From: Eledone cirrhosa
Taxonomy: Eukaryota
Length of the DNA stretch: 64,000 nucleotides
Direction of reading: 5' to 3'
NCBI GenBank assembly: GCA_964016885.1
Contig: OZ024744.1
Coordinates: forward strand, 97,092,001-97,156,000
In this document: positions 1 to 58,429 of the stretch, piece after piece
Layout of the letters: the number at the start of each line of letters is the position of its first letter
Numbering within the stretch: the stretch's first letter is position 1
Translations under genes and position numbers: made by a program
Notes under the pieces: model-generated
What the model was told of the DNA's origin: nothing
Seen by the model: the letters and a program-made list of their open reading frames with translations, nothing else
The model's database searches: none

Positions 1-410
1 TTAAACGTTGAGTTCAATCTATGTCTGCAGCATTTTAATATAAGTAGACTATTAATTATAGGTTAACTAAATTAAAGATAGTTAATATATTGATTTCTAA
101 GGTGTATACTACTTAGGTTTATAATATTTGAAGCGGAATTTTGAAGTTAAATAGTAGTAGAGTATTAATTATAGTATAACTAAATTAAAATTATTAACGT
201 TATGGTATCAATATTAGGAAATGAATTTAGTAATAGGGAAAAAACCAAATAAAGTACTACATCGGTAGTAGAATATAAATTATAGGTTAACTAAATTAAA
301 AATTATATATTAATTTCTATAGTATATGTTAATTAGGTTTATAATAATTAAAACAGATATTGTTTTATCTATAGTAGAATATAATTATAGGTAAACAAAA
401 ATTAAAATTA
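1..410. repeat. Degenerate AT-rich tandem repeat, period about 110 bp
   Basis: The motif ATTATAGGTTAACTAAATTAAA or a close variant recurs at about 55, 168, 279 and 384. Confidence 0.55.
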
Positions 411-482
411 ATATATACACATATATAATTTTCATAAGGAAAGTATATACTTTCGAACGTTCAACTATCTGGCAGATGGGTA

Positions 483-527
483 AACGGTGCTGATGATAGC
501 TAACAAGCTTGAAACTAGTACATCGTT
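483..527 (+). ncRNA. Minimal type I hammerhead ribozyme
   Basis: AACGGTG-CTGATGA-T-AGCT(AACA)AGCT-T-GAA-ACTAGT-A-CATCGTT. Stem I is 7 bp with one GU, stem III is palindromic, and the GUA site predicts a cut after 520. Confidence 0.8.
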
Positions 528-948
528 CCTGTGTCAGTGTTGAACAAAAAGGTGACGTGGTTGCCTTAACACCGTATGGCATAAATTCAGGCTGTTCAGT
601 TTGTTTACAAACGAACAAAGCGACGTTAGCGCCGCTAAACTGATACGTGCATATATGTATGTGTACCTGTATGCATATGTATATATATATGTATATATAT
701 ATATATATGTGCATGCTACTGTACGTCTGTATACATATATGTATGTACGTATACATGCATACTTACATTTAAGTAAGTGCCATACTAAGAGTGAGAAATG
801 AAATTTCGTTTTCATTTTGTTTCAATTTATCGTTTTCGGTATGCCTGACCGATTTAACTCACTCAATATGCAAATTAGGCTGCTCAGCCGTTAATTTTCA
901 TAAGGAAAGTATATACTTTCGAACGTTCAACTATCTGGCAGATGGGTA

Positions 949-993
949 AACGGTGCTGATGATAGCTAACAAGCTTGAAACTAGTACATCGTT
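949..993 (+). ncRNA. Minimal type I hammerhead ribozyme (second copy)
   Basis: Identical to 483-527; predicted cut after 986. Confidence 0.8.
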
Positions 994-2420
994 CCTGTGT
1001 CAGTGTTGAACAAAAAGGTGACGTGGTTGCCTTAACACCGTATGGCATAAATTCAGGCTGTTCAGTTTGTTTACAAACGAACAAAGCGACGTTATAATAA
1101 GCGCCGCTAAACTGATACGTGCATATATGTATGTGTACCTGTATGCATATGTATATATATATGTATATATATATATGTGCATGCTACTGTACGTCTGTAT
1201 ACATATATGTATGTACGTATACATGCATACTTATATATATATGTGTATATATAAATGAGAGGTATAGAGATTGTTTTAGCGAGAAGCTAACAGCATTCTA
1301 TAACATAACTATATATATATATGTGTGAGTATACGTGTGTGCGAGTGTGTATGTGTATATCTTGCATACATGAGTGTGAGTCCATGTGCCCATACCCATG
1401 TGTATGTATGTGTATGTATATATGTAAAATACCTTCTACATCGCCTCTCACCTTCCCCCCATCTCTGTCGTTCGCCACCCCCACCGATACTCCCCCATTC
1501 TCCATATTCGTGTCCGCATGCGCGCATGCACATACATGTGTGTACATATACATATGGCTGTGTGTGAGCGTATGCCGATATGTGTGGGCAAGGATGTGCG
1601 TATGTGTCTTATGTTGTGTGTGTTTATACAACAATATATGTGCACATATATACATATATGTGTGTACGTATACGTATATACAAAGTATCTGTCAGACGGA
1701 GCGTCTAGCTATGTATCTATGTAAGGACCTTGACGCCACCAATACATCCACCACACCACCACAAACGCCCCTACCATAGACAACGGCACCACTACCACAC
1801 CCCCACCCACATGCCAACCCGTCTACTGACAATCCACTAACCTCACACCACAGCCCATCCCACTAAATAACCTTAACCACCACCATATCTTCACATCCAC
1901 CCCCACATACTCTACACGCCAAGGCCAACCCACCACCACCACACCACAGCCCATCTCATCCACCCCCCGTCACCAACATCTCACCATCACACCCACCCCC
2001 ATATACACTACAGGTCAGTACATCGCCTTGATCCTTCTCACCAATCAAAACAACTCATTTTGTCAAACTCTTGAAACTCTGACTTTACCACATAACATGT
2101 ATTTCATTTTCTTATAGCATTTTAAGAGGGTCCGTCGAGCTGCCGATTATTGAGTCGGGTAGGATCGATATAGATCGAACCTTGAGCTGATCAGTGGCGA
2201 AACGCGTGTCACCTATCAATAAATGCAATGAAGGAATAATCAATGGTCCTTTTTATCCTTTCTCTCTCTCTATATATATATATGCAAAAGTTCTATTTAA
2301 ATTGTTGGGATACAACAAGCAAATATTTTTATAACTGATATAAAGCACTCGACTAGTATTTGGAGTAAATATACGATATTAACAAATGGAAAGTATATTT
2401 ATAAAACTGGTATATATTGT

Positions 2421-3559: not shown

Positions 3560-3570
3560 TACATATATAT

Positions 3571-4527
3571 ACTAGACATGAAAAATGCGCAAGCTCAAAA
3601 GTGCCACAGAATGTTATAATAAACCTTCAAAAGTGTGGGACTAGAGTTGTTGCTAAAAAATATTGTAATCATTATATATCGTACATTCTGTGGCATCCTT
3701 TATAAAAATAGCTTAAACCAACGAAGCCTTTATTTTTACGCTATTTCACTTAGTTAATTCTTAGAGTGTAACATATAAAAATATGATTTACAACTATAAA
3801 ATAAATTAATTAATATAATAACAGAGCTGCGGAGCTGAAATTTAGGAAATAATGGAGTATCGGATCCTGAGTTGGAGCCAGTCAATTTTTGACCGACTCC
3901 GCAGCCCTGTATAATACATTTCATATTAAAGTTATTAATAAACCTATTTTACACTTCATGCAAATTACCACGAGATATTGATATTAGATATAAGATACAG
4001 CGCAATATCTACAGCTGTAAAAGTACGAAAGCGAAGTAATAATAAGTGGCTTAAGGTAATTCCAATATGAAAGTTTGTAGTGATAAAAATTTGATAATGC
4101 AATACGATTGTTAATATTATAGTTCTATGAAAATGTAACAATAGATAACTAAATTATTTTACTATTAGTATATTTAAGAAATTATCATTATAGATTTGAT
4201 CGTTCATATAAGCATCATATTAAGTTTCAACACAATTATTTTGTTACTATGAGTATATGATAATAATATTACGTAATTATTTATAGCTGTTATTACATTA
4301 AACATAGATGTATTTATTTTTATATGTTACACTCTAAGAATTAACTAAGTGAAATAGCGTAAAAATAAAGGCTTCGTTGGTTTAAGCTATTTTTATAAAG
4401 GATGCCACAGAATGTACGATATATAATGATTACAATATTTTTTAGCAACAACTCTAGTCCCACACTTTTGAAGGTTTATTATAACATTCTGTGGCACTTT
4501 TGAGCTTGCGCATTTTTCATGTCTAGT
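3571..4527. repeat. Fold-back element with near-perfect 213-bp inverted arms
   Basis: 3571-3783 is the reverse complement of 4315-4527. Confidence 0.85.
3822..3909. mobile_element. hAT-type MITE (88 bp)
   Basis: Terminal inverted repeats (TIRs) CAGAGCTGCGGAG / CTCCGCAGCCCTG; flanking 8-mers TATAATAA / TATAATAC match 7/8 as a target-site duplication (TSD). Confidence 0.6.
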
Positions 4528-5644
4528 TTAATATTTTTTTAAGGCAACGCTTGTAATAACTCTAGTTAAACAGGATATATATTAATAATAAATTATCGTT
4601 GTAATGTAATTAGATTATGTAATTGTTATTATAAATTATCTTATAAATATTAGTGTAAGATGTATAAAAATATTTTCAGACTTTTAATATAAACAACTAC
4701 AAAAAACAATCAATATTAAATCAATATATTATACATAATAGAAAACATAAAATATACAATACAAAAACAAAATATTTACATACAATTGCAATTATCAGTG
4801 TATATACATTTTCTTTATATTCCCTGAGCAAATTAATAAGATTTGTTTTTATTGTACATAATTTGATGACTTGTTGGAGTGTATTAAAAGATAGCAACAA
4901 TTTGTGATTAAATTGTTATCTTAAGCAACTCACTTTTTAATAGTTGTTGGCTGAGCGAAATTGTAAAAGCCTATGAGCAAATATAAAAAAAAATACACAA
5001 ACAACATTTCCTTGTGTTATTACAACATTAGATAAAATAATTGAGCAATGTCGTTATATTTTGCTCTTATTGCACATTAATAGTGTTTCTATTTTTCGGC
5101 ACAAATCCATTACGGCAGTCCATTACTGGTACTTTATTTTATCGAATTAGTAAGTATGAAAGTCGAAGTTAACCTCGGCAGGATTTGAACTTAGAATGCA
5201 AAGGACCATAACAATACTGCAAAGCATGGTGTCTGACGCTCTACCAATACTTGTGTTGAGCTGGTCATTAATTTATGGTGGTCGTGCGTGGAGTAGAGCA
5301 ATCGCTAGTTGAAATATTATGAACAAAACATTTTTATTTGCCGAAGAACATATTTTCAATACTGTTTGTGAATGTGACGAAGGAAATACATTCTGATATG
5401 GAACAGTGTACAAAGTGTGTCTGTGAATAACATAATGTTACCTCATGTTGTTGTCAAGACATAATGGATTTCGTTTATCCAGTTAGAAGATGAAACCTAG
5501 CCATCTCGGATTAGTTATATTTCATGCCATGTGTAAACGTGTTTGAGGATAGCAAAATATGCGCGTTAATTATAATAATTAGTTAATAATATTACAAAAT
5601 ATACCTAATTAAACTCTTTGCTTGAAATTTTATCATTCTTCGTT

Positions 5645-10264: not shown

Positions 10265-11045
10265 TCATTTTTTCGTGTTCAGTAGTGGTTTAAATTTTTC
10301 AATGAAGAATTCTTCTTTATATCTGCGGAAATGTTCGTTATCCGACCATATCTTGAAGAAAGGGAAGATTGTGAATTTTCCCTTCCCGCATGATGCAAAG
10401 TGTGCGCTACATGTGGTATTTCTGACTGTGGGGTCTTTAATTTGTTGTTTATGTACCCGGACTCTATCATGTAGTCCCGTTCCGGTTTCCCCAATGTAAT
10501 ACTCTTTACACTGTGGACATGTTGCGCAATATATTAGGTTTTTCGTTTTGCAGTTCATGTTTGACCTTGAAATTATCATGGTTTTTGAAGGACAACTGTT
10601 TGCCCTCTTCGATGAGTTCACTGGTTCCACATCTAGGGTCCCCTCATTTCGTCACTTGCATTGATTCCATGTTGGTCGTAAATTTTGCCTTGGTAACTAG
10701 TTTTTTATGGTTGGGTGCTTGGCGTCTGCTATAAATTATCTGTGTGTTTTTTAAGAGTGCATTCATTTTGGTAGATTGCTGTAGAATCGGGAGATACTGC
10801 TTAGCAGTTTTCACAATGTTGATGTTCCCTGGGTTGTGAGTGATGACAAAAGAGATAGCAGGGTTTTCTTTTTTATGTTGTGGGTTTGGTTTTCTCAGTG
10901 TTGTTATTGGGATGTTCTTAGCCTTGGAGATGGCTGCGTTGATGAGTTTCATCGGGTATTCTTGTTTTTTAAGGAATTTTTTCAGGTCACATAATCTTTT
11001 TTCTTGTAGTACGGCGTGTGTTGCTATAGTGCAGATGCGCCTTGC
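10265..11045 (-). pseudogene. PLE ORF C-terminus with GIY-YIG endonuclease (Neptune-like), disrupted
   Basis: RRICTIA..., FVITHNP, NCKTKNLIYCATCPQCKEYYIGET...RVRVH...HF...EEFFIEKFKPLLN; TGA at 10644-10646 and a frameshift. Confidence 0.85.
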
Positions 11046-14665: not shown

Positions 14666-15475
14666 TATCAAATAGGAGGTAAAATCCTATCAAATCTTAG
14701 CTATGCAGACGATCTGGCCATCAGGAGTTACTCTAGAACTGATCTGCAAGACTTTCTGAATGTACTGGCCAAACATTCGCTGCAGGCCGGCTTACACATC
14801 AACATCTCCAAAACAAAGTGTATGACAACCAATAAAAACAATGCCAATCTCCAACTCACAATCTACAACCAGCAAATTGCTCAAGTTATGGAGTTTGTAT
14901 ATCTCAGTCACCAACTATCATCAAACAACAATGGAATGGTTGCTGCGCAGTATCGCATCGCTCTAGGTTGGGCAGCTATCAACACGTACAAGGAAGTACT
15001 AACACCAAAACTAGTTTCCTATCATTTACAGGCTAAGATCTTCGATACTTACATCCTACCAGTTGTGTTATATGGTCTTGACTGTGTTACTTGGGCAACA
15101 AGGTCACTTCAGAAGCTCTCTACATTCCAGAACCACATCATGAGACTTATGACTGGCAAGCAGCTCAGCGACTGTATCTATATCACTGAGCTGCTCAACA
15201 TTACCAGACTTAGACCAATTACATCAATTGTCAAGTCAAGAGTACTCAAACTATACGGTCATATAAAAATATCAAGTCGTGGTGTGAGTAGGTTATGCCT
15301 GGAAGGAAGGTTGGCTAGTAAGAGAAGCAGAGGCCGGCAGCCAAAACGATGGCTTGACAATGTCAACTTATGGACTGGACTTGATCTTTGCTTTTTGAAC
15401 TCTGCTGCTGGTGATCGAACTTTGTGGAGAGAGATATCACATGTTAATGCGTTGTCTGCAACCGACGGAGTTTAG
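14666..15475 (+). mobile_element. 5'-truncated RTE-clade LINE reverse transcriptase fragment
   Basis: Open frame IGGKILSNLSYADDLA...GLHINISKTKCM...ILPVVLYG...LKLYGHI...RSRGRQPKRWLD. Confidence 0.9.
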
Positions 15476-20962: not shown

Positions 20963-21161
20963 TTAAGTGAACTGAAAAGTGAATATTTGAACTATTATTC
21001 CAGCAGATGGATATCAAAAGGGGCAAGTCCACAATAAGTAGCCGACACATCAACATCGGCAAAAGCAATATCAACAAAGGGGTGAGAACAACAGAATACT
21101 ATCATCCTCGTCCAACTACAACACCGGGGATTTACTTAATCATTGAATATATATATATATA

Positions 21162-22030
21162 CTCCAAGCAATATCTTCCTTTCAACTCTTGCCACCCTAG
21201 ACACGTTAAAATTAATATTCCCTACAACTTAGCCAAGAGAATCTGTACTATAGTCTCCAATAAAAACATCTGTTACTTACGGCTACAAGAACTAATGGAC
21301 ACACTCATAGGCAGGGACTACCCTGCATCACTAATTGACAATGGAATCCAACGTGCCCTAAAACTCAGTACCCAGGACCTTAGACACCCTAAAGTAAATC
21401 AACCGAAACTAAAAGCTCTTCCATACATCTCCACACACAACCCCCTCAACAATGAGGCCTTTGACACCATCCTCCAGAACATCCCTGTGATAAAAAAGGA
21501 CCATAGAATGAACCAAATCCTACGAACACACGATATCATAAAGAGCAAAAGACAATCTAAGTCAATGAAAAATATCCTAACACATGCCAAAGTACTGCCA
21601 ACCACAACAACGAAACCCACAGTAAAAAAAATGCGATAGACCCAACTGTGGCATATGCATCAACCTAATAGAGGGTTCGGAATTCTATTTCAAAGAAGGA
21701 CAACGTTTTATAGTAAAACACAATTTCACATGCGCATCAGAAAATTTAATATATGTATTAACTTGTTTAGGTTGCCGAGAACAATACAGAGGCCAGACCA
21801 AAAACAACCTCCGTCAACGCATGACTGTCCATAGATCCCAAATTAAAATACGGCAATACAGGAAAATACCACTGAGTGAACACATTGATACCTGTGCCGC
21901 CCAAAATCATTCCAACTTCAGAATCTTTCCCCTCTACAAATTTAAAGATAATGCCACCCACACCCAGCGCATCAGCAAGGAATCTCACTTTATTAACAAA
22001 TACGGACCCCGTCTAAACACTTCTCCCTAA
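21162..22030 (+). pseudogene. PLE ORF C-terminus with GIY-YIG endonuclease (Neptune-like), frameshifted; the element extends to about 23240
   Basis: QYLPFNSCHPRHVKINIPYNLAKRICTIVS..., frameshift at the A-run near 21630, then CDRPNCGIC...NLIYVLTCLGCREQYRGQT...RMTVH...ESHFINKYGPRLN. Confidence 0.88.
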
Positions 22031-25851: not shown

Positions 25852-26000
25852 AGGGTTAAAATACTGGAGCGTGTTGGAGTTAAACACCCTCTTCGTATTA
25901 TAGAAATGACAGTAAAAGGTATAGCTCAATGTAGTTAAACAGAGCCGAAGAATTAAGAAAGTAAAACAAAGAAGCCTTCAATACATCAAAAGTCTTTATT

Positions 26001-26040
26001 AGCCGACAATGTTTCGTCCTATTAAGGACTCATCAGGGCG
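26001..26040 (-). ncRNA. Minimal type I hammerhead (inverted pseudo-LTR copy)
   Basis: Reverse complement of 29616-29653. Confidence 0.8.
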
Positions 26041-27110
26041 ATTAAAACAACAAGAAGTATTATCGGCCAATACAAGCCGGAAACTCCGAAGAATATGGAG
26101 TGTACATACACTAAAGTATTGCAAGATTATGGGTAAAAATATATAATAAAAATAATAAAATTATATAATAAAAATTACTAAGGAGGTGTATAACATTAAG
26201 AACCATATTACAAATATAGTCCAAAGCAAAAAAACCCTAGAGCTAAACAAAGGTGGTTATATAGAGCAGGAATTATATATAATACAATGTAATATAATAT
26301 AATATACCTTTACCAATATTAAAATTACAATAAAAATTAAAAGGTATAATATACATATGTATATATGTACGCACACGTACGCACACATACACATACATCA
26401 ATACACATATCCATCTTCAACTGCACAAATTAAACCTTATTAAGAGTTTAAATATAAATAAGCATAATAGGAATGAAAATAATAATAATAATAATAATAA
26501 TACACATACCCAATATACATGAGGTAATAATATGATATTATTATAAGTAGCACATATAATATATAATAAACTATACAATTATATACTATATAATATAATA
26601 TAATAGAATAGATAATCCCCGGTTAATTTACACAAACAATATAGATGTCGCAATAATACTATAATAATAATATACTAACACTTATAATATACAATATATA
26701 AAGGCATTCAAGTTAACAAATCAATTCATATAGAGTTACAGAGTAGGTGAGGAAAAATAAATTGTACAATACCCAAAAATTATGATGGTACAAAAAAATA
26801 TAAACATCTTACATGATATATAAAGTTTAACATATCATAATGTTACATATAATTAACGGTAAGTAATAAGGATCGATATTACAATAACAAATACAATATA
26901 ATATAATATATTATATAGAATAATTAACATAATATAATATATAATTACTTATAATTACAAGGTTGGTAGACAGACATGTATATGGATGAGTGAGTAAGGG
27001 CCAGACAGTAAATATAATGCACAGTAGTATTACAAATAAAATATAAAATACAATATATAGAATAAAATAAATAAATAACCTATCCCTAGGTCTTTCTTTT
27101 CTTTTCTATC

Positions 27111-27824
27111 TTGGAGAAAAATTTCCCCCCTTCTCATAAATACCATAGTATTTTTAATAAAAATGTTATTAAACTTTCATTCTCTACCACCCCTAATATT
27201 AGTTCTCATTTAGCTAGCACTAACAATAGGAAAATTAGGGATGGACTCTCCTCTCTACATACTACTAGTCTGAACAGATCTGGAAATGCATTACCACCAG
27301 AACAGACCTTATCTAATAGCAATCCTACGTGTAATGCATCACCACTTGAGCCAACCAATAACACCCGGAAGTGCAACTGTAGAGTGAGTGCTAACTGCCC
27401 TTTAAACGGTAACTGCCTTTCTAAGAACATTGTCTATGCTTGCGTAGTTATAACTAATTCCTCTAATAGAACTTATATAGGCTCTACATCTAACACTTTT
27501 AAGACTAGGTTTAACTCTCATATCTCTAATTTCAAACATGTTAAGTTTAAGAATTCTACTTCTTTAGCACATTATATCTGGGATCTTAAGGGGGCTAATA
27601 TACCATATAGCCTTAACTGGCGTTTAGTAGCACGCTCTAATAACCTTTCTACACATACTAAATTTTGTAATCTCTGTATCCTCGAGACATACTCTATAAT
27701 TTTCTCTAGCGAATCCTTACTTAATAGAAAGTCTGAGATATTCTCTTCTTGCCCCCACGCTATTTCTAATTCATACTTTTATTATAAACCTAAACGTTCT
27801 AGTAGTACAAATTGTATCCATTAG
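27111..27824 (+). pseudogene. PLE ORF C-terminal fragment, GIY-YIG endonuclease (probably Naiad-like)
   Basis: FPPSHKYHSIFNKNVIKLSFS...CNCRVSANCPLNGNCLSKNIVY...YIGSTSNTFKTRFNSH...CNLCILE...LNRKSEIFSSCPH; open but 5'-truncated. Confidence 0.85.
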
Positions 27825-29615
27825 CTGTTATATTCCATTACTTATTTTTTAGTTTACGTTCTTTTGTTTACCACCATTATTACCATCATTATTATCATTG
27901 GTTTTTTATGACTCTTTATTCTAGCTCTCATAATCTTTTGGCTACTATACCATATCTATTTTCTTACGCATTAAATTTTCACTATTAACACCTTATGAAT
28001 ATATATCTGATTATATATTTACATTATTTTATTTTATTTCATTTTATTTTATTTTATTTTATTTTATTTTATTTTTATTTTTATTTTTATTCGGATTCTT
28101 CTTTGGATAACCCCCCCCCCCCCCATGCGCACATAAACTTATTGTCAACCCCTCCAAATAGACTATGATTATATTTAATCCCCCCCCCTTCTTTTACGCT
28201 CCTTTCTATTATTTAATATAGTATATTGACTATGATTTTATGCCCCTTTGTATCCTCCATATATTTCTTAATTTCTGTTCCTATTAGCCTACCATAATTC
28301 TGCTTAAGTCAGTTTTTTAGATATCGTTATGTATATGATAGTAAAACATTTCATTCCTTTTTGTAAACATTTGTAACGAAATATTAACGTTTATAAACTT
28401 TAATTACTTAAACCATAGCTAATATTATACTGCCTTATTGGATATTTTAAATATTTTTAATATTAATTTATCAAATAGGGTTTTCGAGTCATTTACTGGG
28501 GTTATTTCCTTAGTTTTTACTTAACTGCATGTGAGACCTAAGTATATACTTTTGTTTTTGTTTTTTAATTTCCGGTTGATTCTATTTATTTATTTTATTT
28601 TATTTTATATTTTATATTTTATTTATTAATACTACTGTGCATTATATTTACTGTCTGGCCCTTACTCACTCATCCACATACACGTCTGTTTACCAACCTT
28701 GTAATTATAAGTAATTTATATACTATATTATGTTAATTATTCTATATAATATATTATATTATATTGTATTTGTTATTGTAATATCGATCCTTATTACTTA
28801 GCGTTAATTATATGTAACATTATGATATGTTAAACTTTATATATCATGTAAGATGTTTATATTTTTGTACCATCATAAATTTTGGGTATTGTACAATTTA
28901 TTTTTCCTCACCTACTCTGTAACTCTATATGAATTGATTTGTTAACTTGAATGCCATTATATATTGTATATTATAAATGTTAGTATATTATTATTATAGT
29001 ATTATTGCGACATCTATATTGTTTGTGTAAATTAACCGGAGACTATCTATTCTATTATATTATATTATATAGTATATAATTGTATAGTTTATTATTTATT
29101 ATATGTGCTACTTATAATAATATCATATTATTACCTCATGTATATTGGGTATGTGTATTATTATTATTATTATTATTTTCATTCCTATTATGCTTATTTA
29201 TATTTAAACTCTTAGTAAGGTTTAATTTGTGCAGTTGAAGATGGATATGTGTATTGATGTATGTGTATGTGTGCGTACGTGTGCGTACATATATACATAT
29301 GTATATTATACCTTTTAATTTTTATTGTAATTTTAATATTGGTAAAGGTATATTATATTATATTACATTGTATTATATATAATTCCTGCTCTATATAACC
29401 ACCTTTGTTTAGCTCTAGGGTTTTTTTGCTTTGGACTATATTTGTAATATGGTTCTTAATGTTATACACTTCCTTAGTAATTTTTATTATATATTTTTAT
29501 TATTTTTATTATATATTTTTACCCATAATCTTGCAATACTTTAGTGTATGTACACTCCATATTCTTCGGATTTTCCGGCTTGTATTGGCCGATAATACTT
29601 CTTGTTGTTTTAATT

Positions 29616-29653
29616 GCCCTGATGAGTCCTTAATAGGACGAAACATTGTCGGC
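29616..29653 (+). ncRNA. Minimal type I hammerhead ribozyme
   Basis: GCC-CTGATGA-GTCCT(TAAT)AGGAC-GAA-AC(ATT)GT-C-GGC; GUC site, predicted cut after 29650. Confidence 0.85.
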
Positions 29654-29699
29654 TAATAAAGACTTTTGATGTATTGAAGGCTTCTTTGTTTTACTTTCT

Positions 29700-30922: not shown

Positions 30923-31595
30923 CTAGGGATGTGATAATGGACGGAGAAATTGGGGAGGTGAGTTGAGTCCAAGAGGGGAATAGGACCCAAGGCGGTGAAT
31001 CAGACTTTGTTCAGTCCTGGTGCGCAAGGCCTGTGATCCATGATGTAAAAGGACACCCAGGACTGAAACATGTAGGAAAGAATGACCAGGAGAACAGAAA
31101 TGACGGGCGACAGGAGTATCCAAACCGAGTCGTATGTCCCTCAAATGTTCGGCAAAACGGTTTGCCATACGGCGTCCCGTTTGTCCGATATATAAAGACC
31201 CGCAAAGGGAACACCGGAGGGCATAGAAAACGTGAAGGTGCAGGAATGGCGGATACGGAAAGTCCCGTTGGGGCCTGTAAGAGTGATGCAGCGGGAACGG
31301 GAACAAGGATGACAGCCGGGTGGAGTCGTGGGAGAGGATGAAAAAGAACTGCGAACCAGGAGGTCACGGAGGTTTGGGGCGCACTTAAAAGCAGTAATGG
31401 GTGGGTTTGGAAAAAAGCGAGAAGTGACGGGGTCAGAAGAGAGGATACGGAAGGAACGGAAGATATGTCGCCGGAGTGGTAGGTTGCAGGGGTGGTAGTG
31501 AGAGGGAAAGGAACACGGGTGTTGGGAGGGCGGGAGTGAGGTGAGAGGGCTATGGTGCGGTCTGTTTCACGGGCTTGTGAGAGCAGCTTGGATCA
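30923..31595 (-). pseudogene. PLE ORF C-terminal relic with GIY-YIG endonuclease (Neptune-like); element spans about 30350-31600
   Basis: VFYALRCSLCGSLYIGQTGRRMANRFAEH...PVARHF...EQSLIHRLGSYSPLGLN; upstream VPFPLTTTP-like linker with frameshifts. Confidence 0.85.
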
Positions 31596-43382: not shown

Positions 43383-46300
43383 ACAACCACCACCACTAGC
43401 ACAAACACCACCACAATCACCAGCACTACCAACACTAGCACCTCTAACGCCACCACCAACACCACACTTACACCACCAACAAGAACAACACAACCACCAC
43501 CACTAACACCACCACCACCACCAACACCACACTAACACCATCAACAAGATCAACACAACCACCACCACCACCACCAGCACTACCAACACTAGCACCACTA
43601 CCACCACCACCAACACCACCACTATCACCACCAACAAGAACAGCACCACCACCACCACTAGCACAAACACCACCACCAGCAGCACTAGCAACACTAGCAC
43701 CACTAACACCACCACCACCTGCACACTAACACCACCAACAAGAACAACACAACCACCACCACTAACACAAACACCACCACCACCACCACCACAACACTAG
43801 CACCACTACCAACACCAGCAACACCACCACTAACACCACCAACAAGAACAACAAAATCACCACCACTATCACAAACACCACCACCACCACCAGCACTACC
43901 AACACTAGCACCACTAACACCACCACCAACACCACACTAACACCACCAACAAGAACACCACCACCACCACCACCACTACCAACACTAGCACCACTAACAC
44001 CACCACCAACACCACCAGCACTACCAACACCACCACCAACACCACACTAACACCACCAACAAGAACACCACCACCACCAGCAGCACTACCAACACTAGCA
44101 CTACCAACACCACCACCACACTAACACCACCAACAAGAACAACACAACCACCACCACTAGCACCACCACCACCACCAGCAGCACTACCAACACTAGCACC
44201 ACTAACAACACCACCAACACCACACTAACACCACCAACAAGAACAACACAACCACCACCACTCGCACAAACACCACCACCACCACCACCAGCACTACCAA
44301 CACTAGCACCACTAACACCACCACCAACACCACACTAACACCACCAACAAGAACAACACAACCACCACCACTAGCACCACCACCACCACCACCACCAGCA
44401 CTACCAACACTAGCACCACTAACACCACCACCAACACCACACTAACACCACCAACAAGAACAACACAACCACCACCACTAGCACAAACACCACCACCACC
44501 ACCACCAGCACTACCAACACTAGCACCACTAACACCACCACCAACACCACACTAACGCCACCAACAAGAACAACACAACCACCACCACTAGCACAAACGC
44601 CACCACCACCACCACCAGCACTACCAACACTAGCACCACTAACACCACCACTAACACCACCAACAAGAACAACACAACCACCACCACTAGCACCACCACC
44701 ACCACCACCACCAGCACTACCAACACTAGCACCACTAACACCACCACCAACACCACACTAACACCACCAACAAGAACAACACAACCACCACCACTAGCAC
44801 AAACACCACCACCACCACCACCACCAGCACTACCAACACTAGCACCACTAACACCACCACCAACACCACACTAACACCACCAACAAGAACAACACAACCA
44901 CCACCACTAGCACAAACACCACCACCACCACCACCAGCACTACCAACACTAGCACCACTAACACCACCACCAACACCACACTAACGCCACCAACAAGAAC
45001 AACACAACCACCACCACTAGCACCACCACCACCACCACCACCAGCACTACCAACACTAGCACCACTAACACCACCACCAACACCACACTAACACCACCAA
45101 CAAGAACAACACAACCACCACCACTAGCACCACCACCACCACCACCAGCACTACCAACACTAGCACCACTAACACCACCACCACACTAACACCACCAACA
45201 AGAACAACACAACCACCACCACTAGCACCACCACCACCACCAGCAGCACTACCAACACTAGCACCACCACCACCACCACCAACACCACACTAACACCACC
45301 AACAAGAACAACACAACCACCACCATTAGCACAAACAGCACCACCACCACCAGCACTACCAACACTAGCACCACTAACACCACCACAACCACTAACACCA
45401 CCAACAACAACACAACCACAACCACCACCACTTACACCACCAACAACAACACAACCACCACCACCACCACCACCACCAGCACTACCAACACTACCACCAC
45501 AGCCACCACCACCAACACGAACACCACCAACAACAACACAACCAACGACACCACCACCACCAGCACTACCAACACTAACATCACTAACACCAACACCACC
45601 AATAACACCACCAACACAACCACCAACACTAACACCATCACCAACTACAACACTAACACCACAGCCACCACCACCACTAACACCACCAACAACAGCAAGA
45701 CCACAACCACCAACACTACCAACACTAACACCACAGCCACAATAACCAACACTAACACCACCACTAACACCACAGCCACCACCACCACCACTAACACCAC
45801 CAACAACACCACAACCACCACCACCACCACCACCACTACCAACACTAACACCACAGCCACCACCACCACCACTAACACCACCAACAACAACACAACCACC
45901 ACCACCAACACTACCAACACTAACACCACAGCCACCACCACCACCACTAACACCACCAACAACAGCACAACCACAACAACCAACACTAGCAACACTAACA
46001 CCACAGCCACCACCACCACTACTAACACCACCAACAACAACACAACCACCACCACCAACACTACCAACACTAACACCACAGCCACCACCACCACCACTAA
46101 CACCACCAACAACAGCACAACCACAACAACCAACACTAGCAACACTAACACCACAGCCACCACCACCACCACTAACACCACCAACAACACCACAGCCACC
46201 ACCACCAACACTACCAACACTAACACCACAGCCACCACCACCACCACTAACACCACCAACAACAGCACAACCACAACAACCAACACTAGCAACACTAACA

Positions 46301-49300
46301 CCACAGCCACCACCACCACCACTAACACCACCAACAACACCACAGCCACCACCACCAACACTACCAACACTAACACCACAGCCACCACCACCACCACTAC
46401 CAACACTAACACCACAGCCACCACCACAACCACCACTAACACCACCAACAACACCACAACCACCACCACCAACACTACCAACACTAACACCACAGCCACC
46501 ACCACCACCACCACTAACACCACCAACAACACCACAACCACCACCACCAACACTACCAACACTAACACCACAGCCACCACCACCACCACTAACACCACCA
46601 ACAACACCACCACCACCACCACCAACACTACCAACACTAACACCACCACCACCACCACCACCATCACTAACACCACCAACAACACCACCACCACCACCAC
46701 CAACACTACCAACACTAACACCACCACCACCACTAACACCACCACTAACACCACCAACAACAGCACAACCACCACAACCAACACTACCAACACTAACACC
46801 ACAGCCACCACCACCACCACTAACACCACCAACAACACCACAACCACCACCACCACCAACACTACCAACACTAACATCACAGCCACCACCACCACCACTA
46901 ACACCACCAACAACAACACAACCACCACCACCAACACCAACACTAACACCACAGCCACCACCACCACCACTAACACCACCAACAACAACACAACCACCAC
47001 CACCACCACCACCACCAGCACTACCAACACTACTACCACAGCCACCACCACCAACACGAAAACCACCAACAACAACACAACCAACGACACCACCACCACC
47101 AGCACTACCAACACTAACATCACTAACACCAACACCACCAATAACACCACCAACACAACCACCAACACTAACACCATCACCAACTACAACACTAACACCA
47201 CAGCCACCACCACCACTAACACCACCAACAACAGCAAGACCACAACCACCAACACTACCAACACTAACACCACAGCCACAATAACCAACACTAACACCAC
47301 CACCAACACTACCAACACTAACACCACAGCCACCACCACCACCACTAACACCACCAACAACACCACAACCACCACCACCACCACCACTACCAACACTAAC
47401 ACCACAGCCACCACCACCACCACTAAGACCACCAACAACAACACAACCACCACCACCAACACTACCAACACTAACACCACAGCCACCACCACCACCACTA
47501 ACACCACCAACAACACCACAACCACAACAACCAACACTACCAACACTAACACCACAGCCACCACCACCACCACTAACACCACCAACAACACCACAACCAC
47601 CACCACCAACACTACCAACACTAACACTACAGCCACCACCACCACCACTAACACCACCAACAACACCACAACCACCACAACCAACACTACCAACACTAAC
47701 ACCACAGCCACCACCACCACCACCACTAACACCACCAACAACACCACAGCCACCACCACCAACACTACCAACACTAACACCACAGCCACCACCACCACCA
47801 CCACTAACACCACCAACAACACCACAGCCACCACCACCAACACTACCAACACTAACACCACAGCCACCACCACCACCACCACTAACACCACCAACAACAC
47901 CACAGCCACCACCACCAACACTAACAACACTAACACCACAGCCACCACCACCACCACCACTAACACCACCAACAACACCACAACCACCACCACCAACACT
48001 ACCAACACTAACACCACAGCCACCACCACCACCACTAACACCACCAACAACACCACAACCACCACCACCACCACTACCAACACTAACACCACAGCCACCA
48101 CCACCACCACTAACACCACCAACAACACCACAGCCACCACCACCACCACCAACACTACCAACACTAACACCACAGCCACCACCAACACTAACACCACTAA
48201 CACCACAGCCACCACCACCACCACTAACACCACCAACAACACCACAACCACCACCACCAACACTACCAACACTAACACCACAGCCACCACCACCACCACC
48301 ACTAACACCACCAACAACAGCACAACCACCACGACCAACACTACCAACACTAACACCACAGCCACCACCACCACCACTAACACCACCAACAACACCACAG
48401 CCACCACCACCACCACTAACACCACAGCCACCACCACCACCACTAACACCACCAACAACACCACAGCCACCACCACCACCACCAACACTACCAACACTAA
48501 CACCACAGCCACCACCAACACTAACACCACTAACACCACAGCCACCACCACCACCACTAACACCACCAACAACACCACAACCACCACCACCAACACTACC
48601 AACACTAACACCACAGCCACCACCACCACCACCACTAACACCACCAACAACACCACAACCAAAACCACCAACACTACCAACACTAACACCACAGCCACTA
48701 CCACCACCACTAACACCACCAACAACACAACCACCACCACCACCAACACTACCAACACTAACACCACAGCCACCACCACCACCACTAACACCACCAACAA
48801 CACCACAACCACCACAACCAACACTACCAACACTAACACCACAGCCACCACCACAACCACCACCACCAACACTACCAACACTAACACCACAGCCACCACC
48901 ACCACCACTAACACCACCAACAACACCACAACCACCACAACCAACACTACCAACACTAACACCACAGCCACCACCACCACCACTAACACCACCAACAACA
49001 CCACAGCCACCACCCCCAACACTACCAACACTAACACCACAGCCACCACCACCACCACTAACACCACCAACAACAGCACAACCACAACAACCAACACTAG
49101 CAACACTAACACCACAGCACCACCACCACCACTAACACCACCAACAACACCACAACCACCACCACCACCACTACCAACACTAACACCACAGCACCACCAC
49201 CACCACTAACACCACCAACAACAGCACAACCACCACCACCAACACTACCAACACTAACACCACAGCCACCACCACCACCACTAACACCACCAACAACAGC

Positions 49301-52300
49301 ACAGCCACAACCACCAACAACACCACAACCACCACCACCAACACTACCAACACTAACACCACAGCCACCACCACCACTAACACCACCAACAACACCACAA
49401 CCACCACCACCACCAACACTACCAACACTAACACCACAGCACCACCACCACCACTAACACCACCAACAACAGCACAACCACCACAACCAACACTACCAAC
49501 ACTAACACCACAGCCACCACCACCACCACTAACACCACCAACAACACCACAACCACCACCACCAACACTACCAACACTAACACCACAGCCACCACCACCA
49601 CCACCACTAACACCACCAACAACACCACAACCACCACCACCAACACTACCAACACTAACATCACAGCCACCACCACCACCACTAACACCACCAACAACAG
49701 CACAACCACCACCACCAACACCAACACTAACACCACAGCCACCACCACCACCACCACCACTAACACCACCAACCACAGCACAACCACCACCACCAACACT
49801 ACCAACACTAACATCACAGCCACCACCACCACCACCACCACTAACACCACCAACAACACCACAACCACCACCACCAACACTACCAACACTAACACCACAG
49901 CCACCACCACCACCACCACCACTAACACCACCAACCACAGCACAACCACCACCACCAACACTACCAACACTAACACCACAGCCACCACCACCACCAAACC
50001 ATTACTAACACCAACACGTCTAACACCATACCAACACTAACACCATACCACCAGTAAAATCACACAATTACCACTAACACCACACCACCACTAACACCAC
50101 TACACTACTAACACCACACCAACACTAACACCATACCAACACTAACTCCATACAACCACTAACACCACACCACCACTAACACCACAACACTACTAACACC
50201 ACACCAACACTAACACCATACCAACACTAACTCCATACAACCACTAACACCATACCACCACTAACACCATACCACCACTAACACCAACACGTCTAAAACC
50301 ATACCAACACTCACACCACACCACCACTAACACCATACCACCACTAACACCATACCACCATTAACACCACACCATTAGCAATAACACCACCCCACCACTA
50401 ACACCACACCACTATTAACACAACACCACCACTAACACCACACCACCACTAACACCATACCACCACTAACACCGCACCACCACTAACACCACACCACCAC
50501 TAACAACACACCACCACTAACACCATACCACTACTAACACCATACCACCACTAACACCATACCACCACTAACACCATACCACCACTAACACCATACCACC
50601 TCTAACACCACCACCACTAACACCATACCACAACTAACACCATACCACAACTAACACCATACCACAACTAACACCATACCACAACTAACACCATACCACC
50701 ACTAACACCACACCAACACTAACACCACAGCACCACTAACACTACACCACCACTAACACCACAACACCATACCACCACTAGCACCATACAACGACTAACA
50801 CCATACCACCTAAACAGCACACGACTACTAACAATACACCACCACTAACACCACACCAACACTAACACCATACCAGCACTAACACCAAACTACCACTAAC
50901 AGCATACCGCCATTAACAACACACCAATAACACCATACCACCACTAACACCACACCACCACTAACACCATACCTCCTAAACACCACACGACTACTAACAG
51001 CATACCACCACTAACATCACACCACCAACAACCTCACACCACCACTAACATCACACCACCAACAACCTCACACCACCACTAACATCACACCACCACCAAC
51101 CTCATACTACCACTAACACCACACCACTACTAACACCATACCACTACTAACACCATACCACCACTAAGACCACACCATTACGAACACCTCCACCACTAAC
51201 ACCATACCATCAATAACACCATACCACCATTGACACAATATCACCAATAACAACATACTAGTGCTAACACCACAACACCACTAACACCACACAATCAATA
51301 ACACCATTCTCCCACTAACACCAAACCAACACTAACACCACACCACCACTAACAGCAACCACTACTAACACCAACCACTACTAACACCATACCAACACTA
51401 ACACCACACCACCACTAACACCAACCACTACTAACACCATACAACCACTAACACCACACCAACACTAACACCACAGCAAAACTAACACCATACCACCACT
51501 AGCACAATATCACGACTAACACCATCCCACCTAAACACCACACGACTACTAATACTACACGACCACTAACACACACACCTCCACTAACACCAGACCACCA
51601 CTAACACCACAACACTACTAACACCACACCAACACTAACACCATACCACCCCTAACACCATACCAACACAAACACAACTCCACCACTAAGACCACACAAC
51701 CACTAATACTACCTCACCACTAACACCACACCACCACTAACACCATACTACTACTAACACCACCACCACTAACACCATGCCAACACTAACACCATACCAA
51801 CACTAACACCATACCACCATTGACACCATATTACCATTAACACCATACCAACGCTAACACCACACTACAACTAACACCACACCACCACTAACACCATACC
51901 ACCACTAACACCATACCAACACTAACACCATACCACCATTAACACCACACCACCACTAACATGACACCACCACTAAAACCATGCCACCACTAACACCACA
52001 CCCACACTAACACCATACCACCATTAACACCATACCACCACTAACAATACACCACTACTAACACCACCCCACTACTAACACCACACCACTACTAACACCA
52101 CACCACCACTAACACCATACCACCAGTAACACCACACCATTACCACTAACACCATACCAACACTAACACAACCCCACCACTAACACCACACAACCACTAT
52201 TACCACCTCACCACTAACATCACACCACCACTAACACCATACTACTACTAACACCACCACCACTAACACCATGCCAACAATAACACCATACCGACACTAA

Positions 52301-55300
52301 CACCATACCACCATTGACACCATATCACCATTAACACCATACCACCGCTAACAATACACTACCACTAACACCACACCACCACTAACACCATACCACCACT
52401 AACACCATACCACCACTAACACCATACCAACACTAACACCACACAACCACTAACAGCATACCGCCACTAACACCATACCATTACTAACAACATACCACCA
52501 CTAACACCACCACCACTAACAACACGCAACCACTAACACCATACCACCATTGACACCATATCACCATTAACACCACACCACCACTAACACCACACCACCA
52601 CTAACACCACACCACCACTAACACCAGACCACCAATAACACCATTCCACCACTAACACCTTACCAACACTAACACCTTACCTCCACTAATACCATACAAC
52701 CACTAATACCATACCCCAACTAACACCATACCACTACTAACGCTATACCACCACTGACACCACACCACCTCTAACACAACACCACAACTCACACCACAGC
52801 ACCACTAACACCATACCACTACTAACAACAAAGCACCACTAACACCACCCCCACTAACACCACTCCACCACTAACACCATACCGCCATTCACACCATATC
52901 ACCATTAATACCATACCACCGCTAACACCACACTACCACTAACACCACACCACCACTAACACCATACCACTACCAACACTACACCTCCACCAACACCACA
53001 CCACCACAAACACCATACCACCACTGACACCACACCACCACTAACACCACACCACCATTAACACGCCACTACCACTAACATCACGCCACAACCAACCTCA
53101 CACTACTACTAAGACCATACCACTACTAACACCATACCACCTCTAACACCTACCACCACTAACACCATACCACTACTAACACCATACCACCACTAACACC
53201 ACCACCACTAACACCATACCACCACTGACTACATATCACCATTAACACCATACCAGTGCTAACACCACACCACCACTAACACCACACCATCAATAACACC
53301 ATTCCACCACTAACACCATACCACCACTAACACCACAGCAACACTAACAACATACCACCACTAAGACCATACCGCCACTAACACCATACCACCACTAACA
53401 GCATACTAATACTAACACCACACCACCAATAACACCACACCACCACTAACACCATACCATCAGTAACACCACACTACAACTAACACGACACCACTAACAC
53501 CATCCCACTATTAACACGGCACCACTAACACCATACCACTACTAACACCACCACCACTAACATCACACCACCACTAACACCACACCACCACTAACACCAT
53601 ACCACTACTAACACCACATCACCACTAACACCACAGCAATACTAAAACCATACCACCACTAACACCATACCCTCATACCAACACTAACAGCATACTACCA
53701 CAAATACCACACCACTGCTAACACTACACCACCACTAACACCACACCACCACTAACACCATACCACCACTAACATCACACACCATTAACACCCCACCACC
53801 ACTAACACAACACCACTACTAACACCACAACACTACTAACACCACACCAACACTAACACCATACCACCACTAATACCATACCACCGCTAACTCCATAACA
53901 CCACTAACACCACACCACTAATAACACCACCACATCTAACACCACGCCACCAGTAACACATTACCTCCACTAATACCATACCACCACTAACACCATACCA
54001 CTTCTAACACCATACCACCAGTAACACTACACCATTACCACTAACACCACACCACCACTGACACTACACCACTACTAACACCACATCACCACTAAGACCA
54101 TACCATCACTAACACCATACCACCACTAACAACATACCATCACTAACAGCACACCACCACTAACACCATACCACTACGAACACCACAACCTCTAACACCA
54201 CGCCTCCACTAACACCATACCAACAATAAAAACATACCACAACTAAGACCATACCACCACTAACACCACACCGTTACTAACAGCACACCAACAGTAACAC
54301 CACACCACTACTAACACCATACCAACCCTTATACCATACCAGCACTAACATCATACCAATACTTACACCACAACTAACACCACACCACCACTAACACCAT
54401 ACCACCACTAACACCACACCACTAACACCATAACACTCCTAAGACCACTACCACTAATACCACACCACAACTAACACCACAACACCACTAACACCACACC
54501 ATCAATAACACCATTCCACCACTAACACCATACCAACACTAACACCACACCACCACTAACACCACAGCAACACTAACACTATACCACCACTAGCACCATA
54601 CAATGACTAACACCATACGACCTACACACCACACAACTACTAACACTACACCACCACTAACATCACACTACCACTAACACCATACCACCACTAACACAAC
54701 ACCACGTCTAACACCACAGCATCACTAACACTACACCACCACTAACACCACACCACCACTAACACCAACCACTACTAACACCACACCACCACTAACACCA
54801 TACCAGCACTAACACCATACCAACACTAACACCACACCACCACTAACACCTTACCACGAACTAACAACACACCACCACAAACACCACACCCCTACTAACA
54901 CCATACCACCAGTAACGCCACACCATCACCACTGACACCACACAACCACTAACACCACAACACTACTAACACCACACCAACAATAACACCACACCACAAC
55001 TAACTCCACACCACCACTAACACCAAATCAACATTAACACCATACCACCACTAACACCATACCACCTAAACACCAAACCACTACTAACACCATAGCCGCC
55101 ATTAACACCACACCACCACTAACACCACACCACCATTAAAACGACACCACCACTAACATCACACCACCAGCAACCTCACACCACCACTAACACCATACCA
55201 CTTCCAACACCATACCACCACTAACACCAGACCACCACTAACAACACACCACCACTAATACCATACCACCACTAAAACCACACCACCACTAACACCACAC

Positions 55301-58194
55301 CACTTCTAACACCACACAACTACTAACAACATACCACCACTAACACCATACCAGCACTAACACCGCACCACCACTAACACCATACCAGCACTAACACCAT
55401 ACCAACACTAACACCACACCACCATTAACACCTTACCACGAACTAACAACACACCACCACTAACACGACACCACCACTAACATCACACCACCAGCAACCT
55501 CACACCACCACTAACACTATACCACTACTAACACCATACCACCACTAGCACTATACCACTACTAACACCATACCATCATTAACACCATGGCCCGACTAAC
55601 ACCACGCCACTACTAACACCATACCACGATTGACACCATATCAACATTAACACCATACCACCGCTAAAACCACATCACCACTAATACCACACCATCGCTA
55701 ATAACACACCACCACTAACACCACACTACTAATAACACCATACCACCACACCATCACTAACACCACACCAACACCATACCACCACAAACACCACACCGCT
55801 ACTAACCCCACACCACTACTAACACCACACCACCACTAACACCATATCACTACTAACACCAACACCACTAACACCAAGCCACCACTAACACCGAGCCACC
55901 ACTAACACCATACCAACACTAACACCATACCAACACTAACGCCATACCACCACTAACACTATACCAACACTAACACCATACCAACACTAACACCATACCA
56001 GCACTAACACCATACCTCCACTAACACCATACCACCACTAACAACATGCCCCCACTAACACCATACCACCACTAACACCATACCACAACTAACACCATAT
56101 CACTACTAACAACATACCACCACTAACACCATACCAACACTAACACCACACCACCACTAACACCTCACCACCACTAACACCATACCAACACTAACACCAT
56201 ACCACTACTAACACCATACCACCAATAACACCACCACCTTAACACCACGCCACCCCTAACACTATACCACCATTGACACCACACCACCAATAACACTATT
56301 CCACTACTAACACCATAACAACACCAACACCACACCACCATTAACCTCACCGTAACACTAACACCACGCCACCACTAACACCCCACCACCACTAACACCA
56401 TACCAACTCTAACACCACACCACACAAACACCACACTACCACTAACACGACACCACCACTAACATCACACCACCAGCAACCTCACACAACCACTATACCA
56501 CTACTAACACCACAACACTATAACACCATGACCACTAACACCACACTACCACTAACACCTTGCCCCCACTAACACCATACCACTACTAACACCACCACCT
56601 CTAACACGATGCCATTACTAACACCATACCAACACTAACACTATACCACAACTAAGACCATACCACCACTAACACCATACCACCACTAACACCACCACCA
56701 CAAACGCCACACCACCATTAAAGCCCTACCACCATTGACACCATATCACCATTAACACCATATCACCGCTAACACCACACCACCGCTAACACCACATCAC
56801 CACTAACACCACACCATCGCTAATAACACACCACCAACTAAAACCACACCACTACTAACACCATACCATGACACCATCACTAACACCACACCACCACCAA
56901 CACCATATCACCACAAACACCACACCACCATTAACACCACAACGCTACTAAACCCACACCACTACTAACACCACACCACCACTAACACAATACCACAACC
57001 AACACCATCCCACCACACCAATACTAACACCATACCACTACTAACAACACACCACCACTAACATCACACCACCACTACCACCATACCACCACTACCACCA
57101 TACCAACACTACCACCACACCACATCTAACATCACACCGTCACCAACCTCACCCCACCACTAACACCATACCACCAATAACACCACCACCTTAACACCAC
57201 ACCACCCTAACACTATACCAGTATTGACACCATATCACCTTTAACACCACGCCACCACTAACACCACACCACCAATAACACCCCACCACCAATAACACTA
57301 TTCCACTACTAACACCATACCAACACCAATTCCACACCACCACTAACACCACACCACCATTAACATCACAGTAACACTAACACCATACCACCACTAACAC
57401 CATACCACCACTAACAGCTCACCACCACTAACACCATACAACCACTAAAACCACACCACCACTATCATAATCCACCACTAACCCCATACCAGCACTGACA
57501 CAACACCACATCTAACACCACACCACCTCTAAAACAACACCACCACTGACACAACACCACCACTAAGACCAGATCACTACTAACACCATACCACCACTAA
57601 AACTACACCACCACTAACACCATACCACCACTAACACCATACCAATATTAACATCATACCACCACTAACACCACACCACCACTAACACCATACCACCACT
57701 AACACCATACCACCACTAACACCATACCAATATTAACATCATACCACCACTAACACCACACCACCACTAACACCACACCAAAACTAACATCACACCGCCA
57801 CTGACACCATACCACCACTAATACCGCACCATTACTCACACCATACCACCACTAACACCACCTCCACTAACACCATACCACCACTAACACCATACCACCA
57901 TTGACACCATACTACCATTCACACCATACCACCACTAACACAATACCAACATTAACACCACACCGCCACAAACACCACACCACTGCTAACACCACTCCAC
58001 CATTAACACCACACCACCACTAACACAACACCACCACTAACACCATACAACCACTAGCACCATACCACCACTAACACGACCACCACTAACACCACACCAC
58101 CACTAACACCACACCACCACTAACACCACAGCACCACTAGCACCACAACACCACCAACACCACACCACAACTAACACCACACCACCACTAACAC
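43383..58194. repeat. C/A-rich satellite array with three sub-domains
   Basis: Roughly 80-90-bp units to about 45290, triplet-register units to about 50000, then a degenerate 17-bp unit AACACCAYACCACCACT. Confidence 0.95.
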
Positions 58195-58429
58195 TGTAGT
58201 AAGACGCCTCACGCTCCTTGATAGAACAACGCCGGTTGAGAACGCCAGAAAGAAAAGACAGACAGCCACTGGAAAGCCGACTGATCACACGCCAGATACC
58301 AGCCTCTGTACCACACCATTGTTTGTGCTACATCAAAAAATAAACGTATATTTCATCTCTAATTTCTGCTGTTGAAATCATTATTATGTCACTCGTGTCT
58401 CAAAAACATCTATAAACCATACTGCTAAA
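58195..58429 (+). repeat. 5' LTR
   Basis: TGTAG...CTAAA; about 95% identical to 63459-63692 by manual count; contains AATAAA. Confidence 0.93.

Follow-up and report, generated by a model that had tools for sequence, protein, structure and literature searches.

Introduction

Metazoan non-LTR retrozymes, as presented in the available text of Cervera and de la Pena (2020, PMC7229834), are short, low-GC, non-coding tandem repeats with a type I hammerhead in each unit and thousands of copies, and their mobilisation by Penelope-like elements (PLEs) via circular RNA was proposed there, not demonstrated. Li, Clavereau and Pollet (2026, bioRxiv 10.64898/2026.07.22.740005) likewise treat animal retrozymes as non-autonomous PLE partners, on the basis of co-occurrence and pLTR homology in vertebrates; in the accessible part of that preprint, 8 of 9 Xenopus dimers showed no cleavage. 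Hydra-clade PLEs insert into (TA)n with 5′ truncation, tandem or inverted arms, a single tailed end and a hammerhead close to the 3′ end, and Craig et al. (2021, PMC8557442) describe the tandem, inverted and tail structures as mechanistically undefined. For PLE hammerheads and the minimal form (min-HHR), Cervera and de la Pena (2014, PMC4209133) proposed that a small palindromic helix III acts as a dimer and that a circular template underlies tandem insertions. As far as the available texts of PMC7229834, PMC4209133 and the preprint go, this circular-template route has been proposed, not shown, for retrozymes and Penelope elements.

Here, we describe a locus at positions 426-1233 of a 64,000-nt stretch of the Eledone cirrhosa genome (assembly GCA_964016885.1, contig OZ024744.1, positions 97,092,001 to 97,156,000, forward strand), hereafter the window. 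By all features that can be examined in sequence, the locus is a metazoan non-LTR retrozyme: it shares with those of PMC7229834 the type I hammerhead in each unit, the short low-GC non-coding tandem organisation and a copy number in the thousands. Its 466-nt unit is longer than the RNAs of about 170-400 nt and slightly over the 150-450 bp given in that source, and falls within the 51-972 bp of the preprint; the two adjacent units, each with a complete motif, that the preprint asks for are present here as well. It differs from the retrozymes of PMC7229834 in having U-U at position 10.1-11.1 and no visible target-site duplication; moreover, that work rests on RNA evidence, whereas the present family is known from the genome, and the insertion ends and chimeras described below point to a specific PLE family, a step beyond the earlier proposal. 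The hammerhead and the insertion habit resemble those of Hydra-clade PLEs (PMC8557442), although the repeat has no ORF and its arms are multi-unit. In contrast to the pLTR homology of the preprint, it shows no detectable DNA homology to its chimera partner.

Our main reading, with a probability of about 0.62, is that the locus is a high-copy non-coding retrozyme, likely copied by a Hydra-clade Penelope from a predicted self-cut, probably circular 466-nt RNA into (TA)n. Among many thousands of copies, this one is in no way exceptional. The family provides a named RNA, a young enzyme family with intact frames as the candidate mobiliser, two exactly placed priming sites and fossils in the genome, and with these the circular-template step becomes directly testable. 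A literature search of openly available main texts found no paper on this repeat family; for retrozymes in cephalopods it returned PMC8557442 alone, and the supplements of that paper and of the preprint may list related families.

Results

Two identical hammerheads of the short-helix-III type

The locus carries two ribozyme motifs:

483..527, + strand: hammerhead 1, type I; predicted cut after 520; U-U at 497/510; palindromic stem III at 514-519
949..993, + strand: hammerhead 2, identical to hammerhead 1; predicted cut after 986

Both are letter-identical and consist of a 7-bp stem I (AACGGTG/CATCGTT), CTGATGA, GAA, a GUA triplet, a 4-bp stem II (AGCT/AGCT) with the loop AACA, and a stem III, ACTAGT, formed by 2 bp and a 2-nt palindromic loop; U-U replaces G-C at 10.1-11.1. 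A first-pass annotation had described them as two identical minimal hammerheads 466 nt apart, with a self-complementary stem III and cuts after 520 and 986. The identity, the spacing, the stem and the cut positions were all reproduced; the term minimal does not agree with the published min-HHR type. In the definitions given by the available text of PMC4209133, a min-HHR has no helix III, a 7-8-bp helix II and G10.1-C11.1. Here, helix III measures 2 bp and helix II 4 bp, and U-U takes the place of G-C; as judged from its sequence, it is a metazoan hammerhead of the short-helix-III type and no strict min-HHR. Since U-U departs from the conserved G-C at 10.1-11.1, the predicted cleavage may be slow.

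A second copy is presumed to be needed for cleavage. A nested fold of 426-1233 gave the dimer pairings a probability of 0.00, which is weak evidence in either direction. Stem II also contains two self-complementary hexamers, TAGCTA (497-502) and AAGCTT (505-510), which could pair between copies besides stem III. A loose hammerhead scan found six motifs across the window, while 30 shuffles of its first 42 kb gave no motif in 28 cases and one motif in two. An Rfam search at E<=1 listed two other hammerheads of the window and neither 483-527 nor 949-993.

The repeat belongs to a large, dispersed family

Copy numbers were determined as exact pattern counts over the 3.0-Gb genome. Exact matches to the 31-nt core numbered 10,718, with none for its reversed control, which settles the copy-number search suggested with the first-pass annotation and rules out the alternative considered there, a one-off local duplication, since the copies are dispersed and number in the thousands. 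A plain satellite was also rejected: the dispersed insertions have their own fixed ends, unlike the products of satellite expansion. A sister family with 422-430-nt units, about 75% identical and bearing the same motif, accounted for 13,302 matches. Upstream of the window, at distances of 4 and 12 kb, lie older pieces of this sister family (L031, 5605-5747; L032, 7805-8247).

Between the two families, the hammerhead agreed at 40-41 of 45 positions, with a G-U to U-G change in stem I, and the segment immediately after it at 84-86 of 123. Among relatives, N7 and loop II varied, and stem I pair 3 appeared as G-U, U-G, A-U and C-G. In a covariation analysis of 12 hand-picked related rows, 1 of 500 shuffles scored as high, with just one pair changing on both sides.

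Extent, alleles and flanks of the window copy

The window copy and the elements of its unit are as follows:

426..1233, + strand: whole insertion, a one-armed, 5′-truncated 1.73-unit array whose tail-less 3′ end runs into (TA)n
521..986, + strand: predicted cut-to-cut monomer of 466 nt, allele without ATAATA
640..752, + strand: (TA)-rich self-complementary hairpin, length-variable, bearing most array-fixed A>G changes
766..829, + strand: tail of about 60 nt between two fixed 3′ end sites
772..786, + strand: small hairpin AGTA/TACT with a 7-nt loop, directly beyond the tail-less end
836..852, + strand: small hairpin TCGGT/ACCGA with a 6-7-nt loop, directly beyond the tailed end
868..875, + strand: ATGCAAAT, which we take to be octamer-like, part of a candidate internal promoter at 868..920
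905..920, also 439..454, + strand: TATA-like palindrome, part of the candidate internal promoter
1094..1099, + strand: ATAATA allele of unit 2, with 1,784 marker matches
411..427, no strand: 17-nt 5′ junction, the reverse complement of the 3′ flank at 1236-1252, of low complexity

The direct repeat 426-628 = 892-1094 is 100% identical at a spacing of 466, and the alignment of the two copies extends to about 1233, giving the 1.73 units where about 1.7, with a hammerhead in each copy, had been estimated. Relative to copy 1, copy 2 has the 6-nt insertion ATAATA and a 4-nt microsatellite deletion. The non-coding character stated in the first-pass annotation was borne out, as the longest ATG frame on the + strand is below 93 codons; the longest frame on either strand has 112 codons, is of low complexity and lies on the - strand. 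No target-site duplication was seen at 426-1233. The 17-nt junction may represent either target sequence copied in inverted orientation or a chance match in low-complexity DNA.

The ATAATA-less allele had 4,535 exact marker matches genome-wide, and the monomer 521-986 matches letter for letter two monomers of L107 on a different contig, which identifies it at the sequence level as a recently spreading haplotype. Among 37 typed loci, the window copy is the sole mixed-allele array. The change of allele falls between 629 and 1093, with no finer placement possible, and likely reflects either a change from one template to another that differed in allele or a later gene conversion. Folding of 521-986 gave a z of -8.75, a value inflated by the TA palindrome; Rfam microRNA matches on the TA hairpin scored far under the gathering scores and were rejected.

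In unit 1, the tail-less end site lies after about 765 (its equivalent is used at 1233) and the tailed one after about 829. The hairpin at 772-786 keeps a constant stem and a variable loop across three common variants, and in that at 836-852 the loop varies and the stem is mostly kept. TGCAAATT is retained in 224 of 260 units of the family and in 32 of 89 units of the sister family. The 5′ truncation of the window copy removed the octamer-like site ahead of hammerhead 1, so that, if this site is a promoter, monomer release at the window would likely depend on read-through transcription.

On its 5′ side, the window copy adjoins an AT-rich repeat with subunits of about 111 nt that is also present in L080 and L050 (window 30-417, L080 4147-4534, L050 1-176); in L080, the stretch with this repeat begins at the 5′ end of a copy of the coding family P1.

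Insertion ends and chimeras with a Hydra-clade element

Our set comprised 86 loci. Besides the window, it included 52 loci taken from the first 100 core matches on one contig and 33 chosen later from lists of alleles, some of them because of their long arrays. The copies were non-coding, low-GC, 5′-truncated tandem arrays of less than 1 to 15 units per arm. Intact 3′ ends clustered at unit positions of about 346 and 405, about 60 nt apart, and were followed by (TA)n. Scoring ends at 319-350 as tail-less and those at 382-406 as tailed, we found one end of each kind in 46 of 48 head-to-head insertions tabulated by hand, the exceptions being L029 and L044; one-armed, interrupted or ambiguous loci, e.g., L037, L052, L058, L063, L065, L131 and L134, were left out of the 48. 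The 5′ truncation, the tandem or inverted arms, the single tailed end and the microsatellite target make up the footprint of a non-autonomous PLE, and the same set of features is described for Penelope-like elements in PMC8557442, as far as its available text goes.

In two loci, L034 and L037, the repeat was joined directly to P1 within one insertion, each element providing one end and the tail rule being kept. In L037, the repeat runs directly into the reverse transcriptase of P1; the insertion finishes on that side with the 3′ end of P1 and on the opposite side with a tailed repeat arm in inverted orientation. L034 shows the converse arrangement. Neither locus has a remainder of the interrupted partner past the far end, which argues for a template switch, as read from these junctions, rather than the insertion of one element into another. 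Linkage of the unit to reverse transcriptase ORFs, which the first-pass annotation had suggested looking for, took the form of direct fusion to coding P1 in these two loci. Pieces of P1 or Hydra-like elements near eight other loci were not counted as chimeras: in L050, L157, L162 and L164, the sequence was read and (TA)n or other sequence intervenes, and L105, L128, L133 and L184 were judged by coordinates. The two chimeras in 85 loci name P1 as a candidate mobiliser; because they comprise just 2 of the first 52 loci and none of the 33 later ones, other (TA)n-targeting PLE families may act too.

P1 has an 821-codon frame and a hammerhead-to-hammerhead unit of 3,864 nt, and its 70 scored copies are 97-100% identical, marking it at the sequence level as a young, intact element. 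It carries RWT (for RWK), DKT, a CxCX5C linker, CxxC, CxH, a C-terminal EN, a hammerhead and a (TA)n target; on these protein motifs, from which it is known here, it agrees with the Hydra-clade diagnosis in the available text of PMC8557442. A Pfam search with a 634-aa part of P1 gave no match. Its two-armed loci followed the tail rule in 9 of 9 cases, two ends being read by eye, and its tail measures about 95 nt, compared with about 60 nt in the repeat and 30-40 bp in the accessible part of PMC8557442.

No DNA similarity was detected between the unit and the P1 termini, and no coding PLE with the unit as pseudo-LTR lay beside the copies retrieved, which are a sample of the loci. Within this sample, the copies thus do not conform to the pattern that the first-pass annotation had regarded as fatal to its proposal, namely that genomic copies are always plain pseudo-LTRs of coding PLEs. 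Its reading of a retrozyme mobilised by Penelope gains support from the copy number, the array structure, the footprint of the ends and the chimeras.

Arrays record a template continuous across the cut site

Genome-wide, 15,130 25-mers spanned the predicted cut and 15,100 started at it. Only 3 of 153 5′ ends fell in unit positions 91-101, compared with 3.6 expected. Since 5′ ends do not gather at the cut, the template, as reconstructed from the arrays, is continuous across it, that is, a circle or an uncut multimer. Unit junctions were letter-perfect in 246 of 277 cases, most of the remainder being substitutions.

Arrays were also uniform within insertions. The indel allele was the same throughout 36 of the 37 typed loci, the retrieved loci on which the count of mixed alleles rests, and arrays retained their own unit lengths. 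Among 19 two-armed loci, 13 had variants common to both arms, 4 had none to compare and 2 differed. A double marker was matched four times genome-wide, with three of these matches inside a single array of about 3.9 units and the fourth in a sibling of 2.3 units; another marker was rejected as private, since it defines a subfamily of 471 copies. Departures from uniformity were seen in L104, whose nine-unit arm switches haplotype blockwise from A94G plus a 6-nt deletion to neither, a candidate template switch, and in L103, where variants recur in scattered units. L103, L104 and the mixed window copy count against a single template per insertion.

In L128, 5 of 5 junctions lack the 7 nt that immediately precede the predicted cut (the placement may shift by one base), a form unique to this locus genome-wide. 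A circle that had been trimmed and ligated, with its ribozyme dead, would produce such junctions. The deletion counts as one event only, because cut-anchored deletions are not enriched (13 matches in 8 loci, against 32 matches in 31 loci in a control interval). Local tandem amplification after insertion is a possible explanation for the presence of the deletion in all junctions.

Array-fixed substitutions on the hammerhead strand comprised 34 A>G and 4 T>C, compared with 10 and 12 among singletons (Fisher p 0.0003); without A163G, the array-fixed counts were 21 and 4 (p 0.012). Many A>G sites sit in the microsatellite, where slippage can mimic them, and the events share ancestry and are non-independent; with this proviso, the bias suggests that + strand RNA was edited. 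Contigs from four sequencing runs of unspecified kind, two of them with a single contig of about 470-490 nt at a depth of 7-10, were uninformative on expression.

Possible routes of amplification

The observed parts of the main reading are the copy number, the non-coding arrays, the (TA)n targets, the two 3′ ends, the P1 chimeras, the array-wide haplotypes and the read-through across the cut site. Array uniformity, the absence of a pile-up at the cut, the A>G bias and L128 favour copying round a cut and re-joined monomer, in so far as genomic copies reflect their templates. We propose that the array would be transcribed on the + strand, that the hammerhead would cleave the transcript, possibly as a dimer via ACUAGU, and that the monomer ends would then be joined. 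The TA hairpin would be edited A-to-I, and target-primed reverse transcription would start at a (TA)n break, on one side or on both, with the tail-less and the tailed site each taking one primer beside its small hairpin and the enzyme circling the template a variable number of times.

The same Penelope-driven element might instead be copied from uncut linear multimers, with the hammerhead slow or a passenger and the uniformity due to descent and local amplification, a route that we consider unlikely. Read-through across the cut fits uncut RNA equally well, and the U-U at 10.1-11.1, the blockwise (L104) and scattered (L103) heterogeneity, the low activity of PLE hammerheads mentioned in the available text of PMC4209133 and that of 8 of 9 Xenopus elements in the accessible part of bioRxiv 10.64898/2026.07.22.740005 all agree with it. 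However, it does not readily account for the cut-site deletion that is private to L128, where it occupies all five junctions and has no source array, for the 3.9-unit array whose triple-marker haplotype has only a 2.3-unit relative, for the many haplotypes fixed across both arms of an inversion or for a hammerhead conserved above its neighbourhood. We regard as more doubtful still that the hammerhead yields linear monomers, which the reverse transcriptase would string into arrays by jumping, once at the 5′ end of a monomer, to the 3′ end of that molecule or of a different one. Such jumps would place allele switches in intervals containing the cut site, as in the window copy and L104, but they predict 5′ ends and ragged junctions at the cut, of which none were seen, and the same 7-nt loss five times over in L128 is better explained by a covalent junction.

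That the units derive from the pseudo-LTRs of an unfound coding PLE, or from such an element by internal deletion, and were amplified as satellite DNA seems highly improbable to us. The genome is rich in PLE families, and the accessible part of the preprint (bioRxiv 10.64898/2026.07.22.740005) gives pLTR homology in 24 of 57 Xenopus families, with 21 of 22 matched repeats being PLEs; against this stand the lack of homology to the P1 termini, single arms with up to 15 ORF-free units and fixed ends of a kind that satellite expansion does not make. Even if correct, pseudo-LTR ancestry would leave the present spread unexplained. Returning to a self-cut circular RNA copied by a Hydra-clade enzyme, we tentatively extend it, at somewhat less than even odds: the enzyme would recognise an unrelated RNA circle, with no shared pseudo-LTR, by two hairpins beside TA-like priming sites and copy it by rolling circle from both (TA)n ends. 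In this view, five passes round a trimmed and ligated circle with a dead ribozyme left the L128 array as a fossil, and switches between the enzyme's own RNA and its parasite are recorded in L034 and L037.

Other repeats in the window

A truncated coding PLE in head-to-head arrangement carries one hammerhead per arm (25999-26042, - strand; 29613-29657, + strand) and a GIY-YIG frame at 27090-27824, with a CxCX5C linker as in the Hydra clade. Four further hammerheads belong to other repeat families (2428, 33229 and 40755 on the + strand, 33688 on the - strand), and the motifs at 2428 and 33688 recur beside (TA)n in many of the retrieved loci. Further GIY-YIG PLE fragments and a LINE-like reverse transcriptase fragment occupy 10265-11045 (-), 20983-22030 (+), 30923-31363 (-) and 14666-15475 (+). 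A perfect 216-nt inverted repeat is located at 3568-3783 and 4315-4530, its copies 531 nt apart. Finally, 43400-58200 consists of about 15 kb of CA-rich minisatellite arrays with periods of 9, 17, 36, 39 and 75 and an extreme strand skew; a mucin-like coding repeat and a satellite are both conceivable.
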